Shown piece after piece: positions 7,646 through 43,508 of a stretch of 44,759 nucleotides of DNA. Origin of the DNA: a virus; IMG/VR virus record IMGVR_UViG_3300032030_000143; one strand, written 5' to 3'. Numbering within the stretch: position 1 is the first letter of the stretch; every line of letters begins with the position of its first letter. A program made the translations under genes and the position numbers. Below the pieces are notes generated by a model. It was not told the DNA's origin. It ran no database searches and worked only from the letters and a program-made list of their open reading frames with translations.

Positions 7646-7710
7646 TTGAAAATTTTAAAAAAAAATTATATAATTATTATAGAAAATTAAAGAAAAGGAA
7701 TTGATAAAAA

Positions 7711-7962
7711 ATGATTGTTGCTAATAAGGAACTTAATAAGGAATTTAATGCTCACATTGATAATCTTGTGGCAAAGTGCCCGGGCGATAAGACCAAGGCT
7801 GAACTTTTCCATGAGTTTATGGCTAATGAAATGTTTAATTGTTCGGTTAATGAGAACTATTTTTATGAATTTACTCTTGCTTTTGAAGAGTTTCTATATT
7901 TTGCTTATCGAATGGATCCTGCGAATTTTAAGTATTTTGATTTGGATAGATTTTATTTTTAA
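7711..7962 (+). CDS. hypothetical protein (83 aa)
   Basis: ORF track; class II AT-rich promoter at 7646-7690; AAAGGAA RBS. Confidence 0.65.
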   Translation: MIVANKELNKEFNAHIDNLVAKCPGDKTKAELFHEFMANEMFNCSVNENYFYEFTLAFEEFLYFAYRMDPANFKYFDLDRFYF

Positions 7963-8020
7963 TTTCCTATTGACAAATGTCTTTCAAGATGTTATACTAT
8001 AACTGTCAGGAGGGATATTG

Positions 8021-8281
8021 ATGGAATTAAAAGAAATGATTCAAAAGCTTGCCAATGCACTTGATAAAGAAAGTGATTATTGGTGTAATTTTGCGGTAGC
8101 GAATACCACCAATCCGAATAAAATGATGTATGGTGCGGCGGTTGGTCGAGGAGCAACATACACTGAGGTTGCAATGTTGCTTAAGTTTATCCTTAATAAT
8201 GATACCGATAAATTTGAAGATTTTCTGGCTTCTTATAACGATATTAAAGAAAAATATCAGAAATTAGATGAAGGGAGATAA
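8021..8281 (+). CDS. hypothetical protein (86 aa)
   Basis: ORF track (ATG at 8021 after AGGAGGG); promoter at 7969-8003. Confidence 0.65.
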   Translation: MELKEMIQKLANALDKESDYWCNFAVANTTNPNKMMYGAAVGRGATYTEVAMLLKFILNNDTDKFEDFLASYNDIKEKYQKLDEGR

Positions 8282-8286
8282 TAAAA

Positions 8287-8616
8287 ATGGATATTAGAAA
8301 CATGCCTGCCAAAGCGGCTTATTACGAATTTGTCGTAGCAGTTCCTAATGCTGACCACTACACTTTTCTCGGTATGTATGCCGATGGGCATCAGGCCGAA
8401 AGAACTGCTCTTGAATACGGTGGGATTGTGATTCACAATGTGCGTGTTCATGGCTATCAGCCGCCTAAGTCTGAAAAAAAGTATTATACTTTTAGTGGCT
8501 CTTGGTCTTGGGGATGCTGGGCTACTGACATAGAAGATGCTGAAAAGCAATTTTCTGAGGCCTACGACGAAGAGATAGACATTGACTATGAGCATAAAAT
8601 TGAGGTAGATGAATAA
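8287..8616 (+). CDS. hypothetical acidic protein (109 aa)
   Basis: ORF track; GGGAGAT RBS; coupled to the upstream gene. Confidence 0.65.
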   Translation: MDIRNMPAKAAYYEFVVAVPNADHYTFLGMYADGHQAERTALEYGGIVIHNVRVHGYQPPKSEKKYYTFSGSWSWGCWATDIEDAEKQFSEAYDEEIDIDYEHKIEVDE

Positions 8617-9111
8617 TCTACCTTGATTGCCCGGGCGCGCGTTCACAAAAAGTTCATAATTTTTCGGCAAATACCTATTGACATTCGTGCACTTATCTGT
8701 TATACTATAATTGTTCCAAGGGAGTGGCCATCTACTGAGGAACTTTGAAGGGAAGCCAACATCATCCCTCCGAGTACTAAATAATGTGTGTTGATGACGT
8801 TGAGAATATCGTCCAATCGGAGACGAACCCCATTTCAAGAAGATAATGGGAAAGTAAATGTTCGATTGACCTTTAGTTTTATGGTTAAAGGTGGATATTC
8901 CTTGGGGTGACAGGTTTTGGTTTCCAAAAAAGGAAAACGAAAATAGATAGGAACCCTAAAAAATCCAAGGTAAAGTCTTTAAGTCCCACATTAGTAGGAT
9001 AACCAAGAGCGATGAATAATGGCCGCTTAAAGAAAACACTTTAAAAAGACTTGACAACATCCAAAAGGTATGCTATAATAAATACAGAAATAAGGAAAAG
9101 GAGAAGGTAAA

Positions 9112-39759: not shown

Positions 39760-40140
39760 ATGAAAGAACTTAAATGCCCTAATTGTGGAGGCCATGTAAA
39801 ACATAAAGGTTGGGGTAAGTATTACTGTGAATATTGCGGAACTGAATTTGAAAATAAAGACGAATATGGAATTATCCATATTGTTAAAGAGCAGTCTGAT
39901 ACGGTGACATTGGCAGCAAAAGCCATTGTAGATGAACATATGCTTCGTTGCTACTCTTTAATAGGAGAAGATAAAGATAAAATGTATGCTCATATTAAAG
40001 AAAGTCTTTGCGATCAGTTAGCCCATGGATTAGTACAATACCTTAATCTAAGAGAAAATTATGACCCAATGCATATGAATATGAGTTTCATTGGAACTGT
40101 TGATGTAGTTGATCCAGCATCTAGGAGGTATTCATATTGA
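39760..40140 (+). CDS. zinc-ribbon protein (CPNC..CEYC), 126 aa
   Basis: ORF track; AAAGGAGTAT RBS. Confidence 0.65.
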   Translation: MKELKCPNCGGHVKHKGWGKYYCEYCGTEFENKDEYGIIHIVKEQSDTVTLAAKAIVDEHMLRCYSLIGEDKDKMYAHIKESLCDQLAHGLVQYLNLRENYDPMHMNMSFIGTVDVVDPASRRYSY

Positions 40141-40679
40141 AAGAATTTGTCTATTATAATAGTATGTTAGATGAATTTAAAGATTTATATTTTCATTTTA
40201 AAAATTTAGATACTTCGTCTAAGTAGCGATATCTTGCTGGAATTGATGACCATGAATTGACAAGAACTATTGATTTTTTTCTAAGTTCTATGGCAAGTTT
40301 AACATCTTATAATAATATAGATGACTTTTATCTTTTGCAAGAACTTTATGAAAATGATGACCCAATAGTCGTTAATGATAAACAATTTACAGTAAATACT
40401 ATTGAAGATTTATTCGATTTAGCATTTGCTCGTAATTTTGAGGAAAATCTTTTTCATATTTATGATAAATATAGAGAATTTGGTTCTTCTATTGAAGATG
40501 CTATTTTATTTTTAACCTATGATAACGAATACATAGAGGAACTTTATACGGAAGAAGAATTAGAACAAATAGCAGAAGATATCCAAAATTATATAGAAGA
40601 TGAAACAGTAAAAGTTCATTTTGATGGAGAAATGTTCTTTATTGAACAAGAAGCTCAAGATGAAAATGAAGATTATTGA
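40137..40679 (+). CDS. acidic hypothetical protein (about 180 aa), TTG start, in-frame TAG at 40224-40226
   Basis: AGGAGG 9 nt upstream of TTG; the track ORF 40257-40679 extends upstream in frame with no stop except one TAG. Confidence 0.5.
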
Positions 40680-40738
40680 CATTCTTTAAAAAAAATGATA
40701 AAATTAATATAGAAAATAATGTATTGGAGTTGTAAAGA

Positions 40739-41671
40739 ATGTCTGATAATTTAACATCCACTGTAAATACAGTTTGTTCTTCAAATTCTATTACAAGTGG
40801 TAATGATAATAGTAGTATATAGTTTTCTATTGCAGATGATCGTATCAAGGTTACTGGGCTATCATCTACTGATACATATACTATTTAGTCTGGAGAAACA
40901 TATAGTAATAATATCTCAATAGGAGATTATACTGCGAATGATTATAGTTTTACTTATCAACCATTAACATCGTCATCTTATGTATGGCCTAATAATGGAT
41001 GGTAGTCTATAGAAGATATAATAGAGAAAAAATTAGCGGAGGAAAAACAAAAAGATAAAATGAGTAATACTGATTTTAGTTTTGGCCCATATACATCAAA
41101 TAATTTACGTCTTTCTACTTTTGGAATTGCTCTTAAAAATAAAGAGAATAAATGGGTATCTTTTGATCGCTAGAGAAATGCTATTGTTGATGTTAATATT
41201 TTAAATATTGAAATTGAAAATTCTAAAATTTTCTATAAATTTCCAAAAGCAATAAGCGATGTTGAGGTTGGAGATATTGTTCTTCATAATGGAAATTTGA
41301 TGTTTGTTGAAGAAATTAAAGATAACCGTTTTGTTGTTATTAACCCATATGAAGGTACAGAATTAACAATCCTTCCTTCAATGTCTCCATTTGGATTTAA
41401 TTATGTCACTGTTATTATATCTATTACAGATTATTTACCAGAAGCTGATTCAAATAATCCATTTGGTAGTTTACTTCCTTTAATGTTTATTAAGGATAAT
41501 AATAATAATAATAATTTACTTGCTTTGTTTGCTTTAACACAGAAAAATAATATAGATATTGATCCAACTATGTTGATGTTAATGGGTGGAAGTCCATATC
41601 TTTATTTTATGTTAAATAATAAGAAAGATAAGAATAATAAAGTAAATGAAAAGGATAATTCAAAGGATTAA
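40739..41671 (+). CDS. hypothetical protein (about 310 aa) with 4 in-frame TAG codons (40820, 40886, 41003, 41171)
   Basis: Promoter TTGACA..TGATAAAAT at 40677-40710; GGAG RBS; a single frame continues into track ORF 41297-41671 and is broken only by TAG. Confidence 0.55.
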
Positions 41672-41710
41672 TATTTAATCCTTTGAATTTTTGCTGTTAA
41701 AGGACAAACA

Positions 41711-43324
41711 ATGATAGAAAAACTTTCAGAACAAGATAAAGATTTAATTTATAATTATATTAGAACATTTGGTCCCATTAATGATAATTATGAACCAGAG
41801 CATGATTTTAGTGGATTTGATATTATATTACACGAATGGGATCGCCAAAAACAAACTTTATACAAACTTTTAGGAAATAATTTTATTGTGCGGCGTCCTT
41901 ATACTTATATGTATAATACAGATGCAATAGTAAAAAAAATGTCAATAGAGAAATATACTCCAGCTTATGAGAATTTTTCATAGTGGATAAAAAAAGAAGT
42001 CTTGGGGCCTATGTCAACTCAAGATTATGGTGTTTATACTATGATTAGGGATACTTTTGATTTATCAGTATTAGCAGATAATAAATACCCTTATGCAACG
42101 ACAACCTATTATTTGCCACCAGATAATGAAAAATTTAAAGTATCAAAAGGTATGCGCCCATTACGTATTTTATCTAAAATTGCACAAAAATATAAATGTG
42201 ATGAACAAATTTTTGAAAATTTTAGACTTTGGCATTCTCAAATGTTAAATAGTAAAATGGTTGATGGGGAACTTTGTTTATCAATCCATCCATTAGATTT
42301 TATGACAATGAGTGATAATAATAATAATTGGTCTAGTTGTATGAGTTGGATGGATCATGGAGATTATAGATGTGGCACTATAGAGTGTATGAATTCTCCA
42401 TATATTTTAGTAGCATATTTGCATAATCCAGAACATACTATGGAGCCTATTCAAGGTATGGAATGGAATAGTAAACATTGGCGTGAATTATTCGTTGTTT
42501 ATCCAGAAATGATGTCAGAGATTAAAGGATATTGTTTCCAAGATCTACATTTAACAAATACGGTCTTAATGTGGATTAAAGAATTGGCAGAAAATAATTT
42601 AGGATGGACTTATGATAATGATGAAATAAATGTTGCTAATACTATTCCTTGGAATGAAGATGATGATTTACTTATTAATATTTCCCCTGAGCAATATATG
42701 TATAATGATTTTGGGACTCTTGATACGCATCGTGCAAGAATTAATCGTAATAAAATAGGGAAATATCATTTAACTGAATGGCAAGATAAAGAAGCAACAA
42801 ATTGGCATTATATGGCAGAATTTTCTTATGGAGGTTTAGCCACATGTATGTGGTGTGGGCAACCAATAGAAGATAGAGAAAGAGATAATGCCGTAATGTG
42901 CATAAAATGCGATAATGGAACTTATTGCGCTTGCTGCGGAGATTATCTTCCTAAAGATTATTTTTATTATATTGATGATTTAGATGATCCTATTTGTGAA
43001 GAATGTTTTGAAACTGAATGTGTCGTTGATGATCTAACTGGTTATTCTCATCTTGCACAACATTGTGATTGCCTTCATTGGTTAATTGGGTATGATGATA
43101 ACAATAATCCTATTTATTATGATAATGTCATTTATGTATATGATCCTGATACTAACCCAGAATATTTTAAAGTATTTAATAATAAACCTCGTATAGACAA
43201 ACGTCTTTGGGATGTCAAATATTATATTACATTAGATGATGTGATTGATAAGGATAGATTCGCTGAAATATTTGATTTAAATTCTAGTATCCCTGATGTT
43301 ATCGCAGATTACACGGCTATTTGA
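41711..43324 (+). CDS. large Cys-cluster protein (about 537 aa) formed by TAG read-through at 41981-41983
   Basis: Track ORFs 41711-41983 and 42002-43324 share a frame and are separated only by TAG; a C-terminal CxxC cluster is present. Confidence 0.5.
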
Positions 43325-43508
43325 AAATTTAAAAAAAAAATTATATAATATAATTGTAAAAAAGATAAGAAATATCTTTAAAAAAGAAACAGATGAACGG
43401 CATACTTATTAAAAAAGGAAATCTAATTGCAAATTTAAAAAAAATATTATAAAATAAGTATGTAAAAAAGAAAAAAAATAATTTATTAATGAAAGGTGAA
43501 TAAAAATT

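Follow-up and report, generated by a model that had tools for sequence, protein, structure and literature searches.

Phage T5 relies on host sigma-70 RNA polymerase for all of its promoter classes and needs no phage polymerase. In T4, early promoters are read by sigma-70 alone and middle promoters by sigma-70 together with AsiA and MotA, a MotA box ((a/t)(a/t)(a/t)TGCTTtA, centred at -30) replacing the -35 element; the late promoters (gp55/gp33) consist of a -10 element only and have no -35 requirement. The SPO1 hexamers are AGGAGA-N17-TTTNTTT for gp28 and CGTTAGA-N18-GATATT for gp33/34. The SPO1 transcription programme has been summarised (PMC13401047), "group 2" jumbo phages, which lack an RNA polymerase of their own and encode RpoD-like sigmas, have been reported (Iyer et al. 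2021, PMC7824862), and in recoded gut phages the recoding has been tied to structural and lysis genes, promoters not being treated (Borges et al., bioRxiv 10.1101/2021.08.26.457843). Here we analyze a 44.8-kb stretch of DNA (44,759 nucleotides, hereafter the window) from the IMG/VR virus record IMGVR_UViG_3300032030_000143, which comes from a large uncultivated gut/rumen phage, and a recurrent AT-rich promoter motif in it (class 2) that stands beside a second set of promoters (class 1).

Class 2 is a distinct class and a strongly conserved cassette, and it is almost certainly a promoter. In our preferred reading, to which we assign a probability of roughly 0.55, it is a sigma-A-type promoter read by the host holoenzyme that marks a second, probably delayed, TAG-containing regulon. 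The proposed cassette would span ∼45–50 nt and be of the sigma-70-family type. It would open with a T-rich stretch, often the tail of a preceding terminator. The -35 element (TTGAAA here; in relatives TTGATT, TTGACA or TTGACT) would be separated from the -10 element TATAAT by 17 nt made up wholly of A/T and including an A-tract, and the initially transcribed region (ATWTATAGAAAA or ATATATGTAAGA), conserved and A/T-rich, would follow. Transcription would probably start at an A or G 7–8 nt 3' of the -10 element; sigma-70-family holoenzymes initiate 6–8 nt past it. We propose that large (60–400 kb) gut/rumen phages of a whole clade may use it as their standard promoter, where it would drive tRNAs (including a TAG suppressor) and replication, nucleotide, RNA-repair and small accessory genes. 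Its reader would most likely be bacterial core RNA polymerase with a housekeeping-type sigma, host sigma-A in the first place; in sigma-encoding relatives, the phage RpoD-like sigma possibly reads it too. The GC-richer first 27 kb hold ∼55 perfect-consensus promoters, and next to these class 2 would define a second regulon. We found no description of promoters from this clade in the literature; a preprint on phage MVPs contains no promoter analysis, and a 2026 jumbo-phage survey mentions neither promoters nor sigma factors.

The T5 promoters are said to have been described by Gentz and Bujard in 1985 and by Kammerer and colleagues in 1986. The window resembles T5 in its very strong sigma-70-type promoters with A/T-rich spacers and extra conserved blocks that include the first ∼20 transcribed bases, and also in that the temporal groups of T5 share hexamers and differ in these extra blocks. 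It differs in having exact 29-mers, in a far stricter conservation that is common to a whole uncultivated clade, and in that the temporal assignment is putative. The likeness to T4 lies in a perfect host-type class for many tiny host-takeover open reading frames (ORFs) and in a second class for tRNA, nucleotide-metabolism and replication genes, which keeps the -10 element and has a less canonical -35 region. Unlike T4 middle promoters, however, class 2 keeps a TTGA -35 at 17 bp and carries no MotA box (TGCTT at -30). We rejected a MotA-box reading on these grounds, and a Pfam scan of 63 proteins from the window and its relatives detected no MotA or AsiA domain. Nor does the motif look like a T4-type late promoter, which has only a -10 element (TATAAATA), no -35 and virion genes behind it; class 2 combines TATAAT with a conserved TTGA -35. 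The dense consensus sigma-A promoters in one orientation, each with one small gene, recall the takeover modules of SPO1 and Twort-like Staphylococcus phages, in which later classes are likewise sequence-distinct. The SPO1 middle and late hexamers are unrelated to TTGACA/TATAAT, whereas class 2, with its consensus TTGAAA-N17-TATAAT, stays sigma-A-like, and a SPO1 middle/late type was rejected on this difference. We also rejected a promoter for a phage-encoded polymerase (phiKZ/AR9, N4 or T7-like), given the sigma-70-like geometry and the lack of a polymerase signature: the beta'-type DFDGD motif is absent from 1.7 Mb of window and clade sequence, and no polymerase domain was detected among the scanned proteins.

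The Class-2 Motif and Its Geometry

The initial annotation of the window had reported a repeated AT-rich motif forming a promoter class of its own. The repeat is real: the 29-mer TTGAAAATTTTAAAAAAATATTATATAAT occurs in nine copies at ≤3 mismatches (starting at 7646, 19518, 28414, 28626, 31167, 35601, 38398, 43321, and 43427), compared with none in 100 dinucleotide shuffles of the window. Looser matching adds 28216, 28299, and 33043 (-35 TTGATT) and two hybrids at 40676 and 43963 that join TTGACA, an A-tract spacer and TAAAAT. All of the resulting 14 sites are intergenic and lie on the + strand. Each agrees with TTGACA-17-TATAAT at 10–11 of 12 positions and has a spacer of 17 bp, an arrangement within that of sigma-70/sigma-A promoters (-35 and -10 hexamers 17 ± 1 bp apart), and most sites are also placed as such promoters are, between genes, co-oriented with them and 5' of an RNA gene or of a start codon with its ribosome-binding site. 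Nine sites precede a start codon with a Shine-Dalgarno sequence by 27–105 nt, or by 27–53 nt if the site at 28626 (105 nt) is set aside; the 27-nt distance is measured to ATG 44019, and the same ORF could begin at 44007. Four sites are found ≤90 nt 3' of a terminator-like hairpin.

The separate class is likewise confirmed by the spacers, whose A+T content is bimodal between the classes: those of class 2 (17 nt) are 88–100% A+T and contain an A-tract, compared with 35–88% A+T in class 1. Conservation continues for ∼12–20 nt 3' of the -10 element in two flavours, ATTTATAGAAAA (the first, also rendered as ATWTATAGAAAA) and ATATWTGTAAR.

Near-identical copies dispersed through a genome, five of them orphans and some in tandem (28216–28626; 43321 and 43427), might also be expected of a recombination, packaging or mobile mini-cassette element that is promoter-like only by base composition. 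We consider such an element very improbable, as the copies are strictly co-oriented with genes, keep the 17-bp spacing of the hexamers and a fixed distance to ribosome-binding site and ATG or to tRNA 5' ends, are positioned right after terminators, and are not flanked by inverted or direct terminal repeats.

Conservation and Spread in Related Phages

The window is 83–88% identical to parts of IMGVR_UViG_3300028805_000039 (239,565 bp, a metagenome contig in IMG/VR), its closest relative. The ends of this contig are joined within another contig, L014, and it is therefore probably a complete genome. A nucleotide megablast of both window halves against GenBank phages (n = 50,697) returned no match. 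At three orthologous sites, promoter and 5' untranslated region (UTR) are 97–100% identical between the window and the closest relative, whereas the adjoining coding sequences are 68–87% identical, which suggests that the cassette is under purifying selection. For the promoter at 7646, the ortholog in L005 shows 97% identity in the promoter and 100% in the 5'-UTR, compared with 85–87% in the flanks, and the promoter at 35601 is 100% identical in L008.

In the closest relative (239.6 kb), 12 copies are exact and many more are near-copies, all in the orientation of the genes, and the class-2 domain spans 121 kb to 239.5 kb and continues to 5.5 kb. The remaining 115-kb arc (5.5–121 kb) is without an exact copy, as judged by exact-copy match alone, with the sequence and genes of the arc unread. 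Relatives were recovered from IMG/VR by searching with the motif itself. A degenerate pattern (A-tract, -10 element and first transcribed bases fixed, -35 free) gave at least 120 matches in IMG/VR and occurs 251 times in the collected viral loci, on contigs of 60–400 kb. The 251 occurrences carry TTGATT (123), TTGAAA (55), TTGACA (20) or a similar hexamer, nearly always exactly 17 bp 5' of the -10 element. Across the clade, conservation within the cassette is lowest in the -35 hexamer (TTGATT, TTGAAA, TTTATT, TTGTTT), and the spacer consensus is specific to the lineage (TTTAATAAAATTTTTGA in 3300032038_000025, TTTTTATTAAATTATAA in L308).

Several copies in relatives are found 45–70 nt 5' of tRNA genes instead of proteins, for example before tRNA-Lys in L004 (promoter 8914, tRNA 8988) and before tRNA-Pro in L007 (promoter 12102, tRNA 12169). 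The conserved transcribed region is thus not a translation signal. A leader that had been described as shared by several sites, AGAAATGAGGWWTTTTT, is present at just two in the window (35645 and 38441), and it recurs in relatives.

The same degenerate pattern matches GTDB genomes at least 120 times, mostly in contigs of metagenome-assembled genomes (MAGs) binned as Oscillospiraceae, Acutalibacteraceae, Lachnospiraceae, Clostridia or Bacilli. At least 29 of the 120 matches listed carry homologs of window proteins, that is, they are phage contigs inside MAG bins, and bin taxonomy was therefore left out as host evidence. The host is probably a member of the Bacillota, although this is not established.

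Genes behind the Cassette

Class 2 had been proposed to mark late-type genes, a label that the downstream genes do not support. No window gene 3' of a class-2 site has a virion or lysis annotation, and the matches among these genes are limited to an MVP homolog, a zinc-ribbon protein and PHROGs of unknown function. The MVP homolog (33107–35554, +) has 815 aa, a TAG at codon 6 and Pfam matches to MVP_shoulder (E = 2e-20) and Vault_3. Homologs of this protein at 40–42% identity are encoded by the huge phages LR756501 (735 kb) and LR756500 (462 kb) and by many contigs of the clade.

In the closest relative, the parts of the class-2 domain that were read contain at least 38 tRNAs, including tRNA(CTA), together with genes for adenylosuccinate synthetase, a radical-SAM enzyme, an AAA ATPase, an N6-methylase, an RNA ligase, an SPFH protein, Thg1 and a metallophosphatase. 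Clade-wide, 221 distinct proteins begin just 3' of class-2-type promoters, and those identified comprise DNA polymerase III alpha (DnaE), GyrA, GyrB, NAD-dependent ligase (LigA), sigma-70, helix-turn-helix (HTH) proteins and RNA ligases. In relatives, the cassette thus precedes genes with early or middle functions rather than virion functions, which leaves the late label unsupported; the gene content can be likened to that of T4 delayed-early or middle genes. Tail-fibre-, terminase- and portal-like genes of other clade members (judged by eye, unconfirmed) are located in long operons with few promoters.

A true late class marking virion and lysis genes appears unlikely to us, if not to the same degree as a non-promoter element. 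Such a class would account for the predominance of class 2 in the AT-rich, TAG-recoded part of the window and for a terminase/portal-like operon in L198 (by eye only) that has a related promoter, and it would agree with the tie between recoding and late genes in other phage clades (bioRxiv 10.1101/2021.08.26.457843). It is contradicted by the lack of a structural or lysis gene behind any window site, by the tRNA, replication, repair and sigma genes that follow the cassette in the clade, by the 115-kb arc of the relative without exact copies, and by a sigma-A-like shape that is not the -10-only late motif. Our analysis corrects the "late promoter" label, and annotation pipelines that assign timing from such motifs would be led astray.

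Two Promoter Classes and Partial Recoding of TAG

The window splits into two parts, 1–27.3 kb with 35–47% G+C and 28–44.7 kb with 27–35% G+C, and class 2 predominates in the latter. Class 1 comprises ∼55 perfect or near-perfect TTGACA/TTGACT-17-(TGn)TATAAT promoters on the + strand between 186 and 27319, ∼1 per 500 bp, each in front of a small ORF or of none and mostly with TG at -15/-14. An A-tract and a G/C clamp are present further 5' in many of them. Between 1 and 20 kb we counted 90 consensus promoters, against 51 expected, 24 of them perfect at 12/12 positions; this density is extraordinary. Promoters of the same style (A-tract and G/C clamp, TTGAC(A/T), TGn-TATAAT) precede homologs of the early genes in L182, L193, L171, and L064.

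The two parts also differ in their use of TAG and in codon preference. In the first 27 kb, 48 genes contain a single TAG in 4951 codons, terminate with TAA (41) or TGA (7), and prefer CAG over CAA for Gln (98 to 21). In the AT-rich part, 14 in-frame TAGs are distributed over 6 of 20 genes, the Gln preference is CAA over CAG (56 to 33), and several long frames between 28 and 44.7 kb are open only if TAG is a sense codon, that of the 815-aa MVP homolog being one example. A gene on the - strand (32011–32619) encodes a membrane protein of the formate/nitrite-transporter family (PF01226, E = 5e-18) with 5 in-frame TAG codons; it belongs to a short block in opposite orientation (29–33 kb) that also shows a sign change of the GC skew.

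A suppressor tRNA(CTA) is encoded in relatives (L010, 1831–1900; L003, 1609–1702), and class 2 is found ∼130 nt before it in L003 and ∼440 nt before it, behind a small ORF, in L010. We infer that class-1 genes can be expressed at once in the standard code of the host and that part of the class-2 regulon would need a suppressor tRNA that the same regulon supplies. This dependence fits a delayed class, but does not prove timing. Because some of its genes need read-through of TAG, the second regulon is probably delayed-early or middle. As in recoded gut phages, TAG is recoded in part of the genome, tRNA(CTA) is found in relatives and the early genes are compatible with both codes; the difference is that the recoded genes here stand behind a sigma-A-like class which also drives the suppressor tRNA.

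In this genome the promoter class goes together with base composition, codon preference and the use of TAG as a sense codon, which makes the proposed programme, standard code first and recoded later, testable. Taken further, the 45-nt cassette may be the transcriptional arm of a phage genetic-code switch, read by a phage-specific factor on the conserved spacer and transcribed region; we put this forward tentatively, as an idea with odds well below even. The factor could be the RpoD-like sigma of the relatives or an early protein such as the AbrB-fold protein at 9333–9602. The regulon of such a switch would consist of the suppressor tRNA(CTA), arrays of ∼40 tRNAs and TAG-containing genes with AT-biased codons, expressed after a class-1 wave. 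One genome would then run two programmes, each with its own promoter class, codon usage and genetic code. The cassette in any case provides an easily searchable regulatory signature for a clade of large (60–400 kb) uncultivated gut/rumen phages, many of which are TAG-recoded and many of which encode an RpoD-like sigma.

Sigma Factors and Candidate Regulators

The motif had been taken to suggest a distinct sigma or activator specificity. We found neither a sigma-factor gene nor one for a polymerase subunit in the window, which was searched with SigA, RpoD, SigF, SigW and gp55 sequences and, on all ORFs ≥50 aa, with a phage-sigma hidden Markov model. Contigs identical to the window (L132, L134) reach 3–5 kb further and have only small ORFs and no sigma there. 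Nor is a sigma found in the ∼90 kb of the closest relative that were examined, including 34 kb past the syntenic point, with ∼135 kb of that genome unseen.

Across clade loci, phmmer searches with SigA/RpoD sequences returned full-length RpoD-like proteins (E 1e-70 to 1e-83). These sigmas have ∼280–300 aa and lack region 1.1 (L059, L149, L070, L176, L015, L287–L299 and others), and Pfam identifies regions 1.2, 2, 3, and 4. Two scans of related loci located a sigma gene in dozens of large viral contigs. In at least 14 contigs it is positioned 1–3.4 kb 3' of homologs of the window genes 38908, 41711, 43509, and 44007 and in the same orientation; by this synteny the window ends just short of the expected sigma position. 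In L301, a 530-aa ORF (4168–5760) has an HNH_3 endonuclease domain in frame with a complete sigma-70 (regions 1.2–4), possibly a homing-endonuclease fusion or insertion at the sigma gene.

Regions 2.4 and 4.2 of sigma-70 make the -10 and -35 contacts, respectively, and the phage sigmas keep the region 2.4 motif STYAT[YW]WI[KR]Q and the region 4.2 motif [TS][RK]ER[IV]RQ[IL]E. In ∼20 relatives the gene for the RpoD-like sigma is itself preceded by a class-2-type promoter, and host polymerase must therefore be able to use class 2, barring upstream read-through or a virion-delivered sigma. With contact regions that look canonical and the sigma gene behind class 2, a distinct specificity is possible but not required. 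Co-variation of sigma residues (region 3.0 H/E; region 4.2 R/K) with the promoter TG or with -35 position 5 was assessed by eye, proved too inconsistent and was not used.

Class 2 could alternatively be read specifically by a phage RpoD-like sigma on host core polymerase, as a middle regulon that follows the sigma-A-dependent class 1, with the conserved spacer and transcribed region acting as the discriminator. This possibility, to our mind clearly less probable than the host reading, would explain why many clade members carry a full sigma-70 (regions 1.2, 2, 3, 4) syntenic with homologs of 43509/44007, why contigs with the motif and contigs with a sigma overlap heavily, and why the spacer consensus varies by lineage; polymerase-less jumbo phages with RpoD-like sigmas offer a precedent (PMC7824862). 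It has to contend with the missing sigma in the window, in the 3–5 kb past its end and in ∼90 kb of the closest relative, with class 2 preceding the sigma gene itself in ∼20 relatives, and with regions 2.4 and 4.2 that are essentially those of cellular SigA/RpoD and would confer the same TTGACA/TATAAT specificity, with no discrimination against class 1. The clade resembles group 2 jumbo phages in that relatives have a near-complete RpoD-like sigma and no multisubunit polymerase signature (DFDGD, 1.7 Mb); the promoters of group 2 sigmas are undescribed, and here no sigma was found in the window lineage.

Two early genes, both on the + strand and under class-1 promoters, encode possible transcription regulators of the phage programme: an AbrB/MazE-fold DNA-binding protein (9333–9602; PF04014, E = 9e-13) and a PC4/p15-like single-stranded DNA-binding protein (11150–11368; PF02229, E = 2e-9). 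The AbrB-like protein is ∼70% conserved in L182/L193. An activator or repressor acting on class 2 is possible, with the AbrB/MazE-fold protein as candidate. Class 2 would then be a host sigma-A promoter gated by a phage DNA-binding protein that occupies the spacer or transcribed region and sets timing, either an activator like T4 MotA/AsiA or phi29 p4 or an early repressor/anti-silencer. Conservation at positions that sigma does not read (spacer, +1 to +20), a -35 hexamer that is the least conserved part of the cassette, the early AbrB-fold and PC4-like genes and a conserved HTH family behind class-2 promoters in relatives all speak for gating. Yet no protein has been tied to the motif, the spacer drifts between lineages while the AbrB-like protein stays ∼70% conserved in lineages with other spacers, and sites with 10–11 of 12 consensus positions should fire unaided. 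We regard gating as doubtful, slightly more so than a dedicated phage sigma.

Several points weigh against the host sigma-A reading. Start sites, promoter strength, timing and the reading holoenzyme are all deduced from what is observed, namely the motif with its geometry, placement and conservation and the genes identified downstream. Of the 14 sites in the window, five (19518, 28216, 28299, 28414, and 43321) have no gene directly 3'. Identity over the whole spacer and transcribed region in dozens of paralogous copies exceeds what sigma-A contacts need, so that either an extra reader (a sigma variant, activator or repressor) or frequent homogenisation of the cassette must be invoked, and co-evolution with a factor encoded by the phage would fit the lineage-specific spacer consensus. 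The 115-kb arc of the closest relative could contain operons headed by diverged copies, and the terminase/portal-like operon of L198 (identified by eye, unconfirmed) is headed by a related TTGACA-A-tract-TGG-TATAAT promoter. Finally, the MAG bins that suggest Clostridia and Bacilli as host include contaminating phage contigs. That a phage-specific factor reads the conserved spacer is a live minority possibility. We nevertheless prefer the host sigma-A reading, in which class 2 is not shown to be a late, virion-gene signal and a distinct sigma is not required.

Individual Class-2 Sites

The genes named in the initial annotation are correct, with start codons at 7711, 31244, 33107, 35664, 38459, and 43509 and a 5-codon micro-ORF at 19566; its list overlooked 40739 and the gene starting at 44007/44019. 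The sporadic occurrence of class 2 in the early region also holds, with two sites inside the first 27 kb. The first (7646–7674, +; TTGAAA-17-TATAAT) adjoins a terminator (7605–7640) within the class-1 region and is 36 nt 5' of ATG 7711. The second (19518–19546, +; TTGAAA-17-TAAAAT, a 29-mer match), again in the class-1 region, is followed only by the micro-ORF and a weak hairpin, and then by a class-1 promoter at 19621.

Four tandem sites 5' of 28760 are present at the junction as reported, but the coordinates 28205, 28305, 28398, and 28621 were off by 6–16 nt, the true -35 elements starting at 28216, 28299, 28414, and 28626. The site at 28216–28244 (+) is class-2-like (TTGATT, TGA-TATAAT) and an orphan without ORF; two class-2 promoters, a looser match at 28299–28327 (+; TTGAAA, TGA-TATAAT) and a 29-mer match at 28414–28442 (+), are orphans too. 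The fourth (28626–28654, +) is followed by a 105-nt GC-rich leader and ATG 28760 (131 aa). In the interval 28245–28413, A8-N3-T8/9 and a repeated unit, GCCGCAA(N5-6)CCAAGAGG, come after each of two orphan class-2 promoters; we found no significant fold and no Rfam match here. The five ORF-less sites of the window are either tandem promoters or drivers of short RNAs. Transcripts of four orphan or leader sites folded no better than shuffles, and Rfam and tRNA scans of the window returned 4 tRNAs only, with no RNA family at the orphan promoters.

In the AT-rich part, an exact 29-mer at 31167–31195 (+) is 48 nt 5' of ATG 31244, and a variant with TTGATT and TGA-TATAAT (33043–33071, +) is 35 nt 5' of ATG 33107, the start of the MVP homolog. 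Exact 29-mers are also located at 35601–35629 (+), 3' of a hairpin (35557–35598), and at 38398–38426 (+), 3' of a terminator (38357–38392). Between the former and ATG 35664 lies the leader AGAAATGAGGAATTTTT (35645–35661); the latter is followed by a leader at 38441–38457 and ATG 38459. The hybrid at 40676–40704 (+; TTGACA, A-tract spacer, TGA-TAAAAT, initially transcribed sequence TAATATAGAAAA) precedes ATG 40739 by 34 nt, and the gene encodes 310 aa with 4 in-frame TAG codons. A tandem pair precedes 43509, with a 29-mer match at 43321–43349 (+) and TTGCAA...TAAAAT at 43427–43455 (+), 53 nt 5' of the ATG. The second hybrid (43963–43991, +; TTGACA, A-tract spacer, TGG-TAAAAT) is found 5' of the last gene of the window (start 44007/44019), which contains 6 in-frame TAG codons.

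Other Features of the Early Region

Some class-1 promoters form triplets or quadruplets 110–130 nt apart without an ORF (13128/13245/13398; 20281/20408/20536; 21264/21386/21497; 23884/23996/24135/24268). The first promoter of each set is preceded by the repeat TTGTTAAATAAATAACT, and ∼100-nt GC-rich units follow. The sets look like arrays of short non-coding RNAs with their own promoters, and the style is also seen in L171 and L182/L193. One of two strong minus-strand consensus promoters (27882–27854, -; the other is at 3102) is directed away from the junction; ahead of it lie ∼60 nt of GC-rich sequence, which terminate at a hairpin (27799–27774).

The first 27 kb also contain paralogous gene pairs (18772–19482/25286–25990; 20658–21047/24402–24782; 5818–6177/22483–22899), whose families are likewise multiplied in L308, L064, and L182. 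Domains recognized in the early region include a PcfJ-like protein (15052–16176), a nucleoside 2-deoxyribosyltransferase (17262–17729) and an NT5C-type 5'-nucleotidase (5279–5713).

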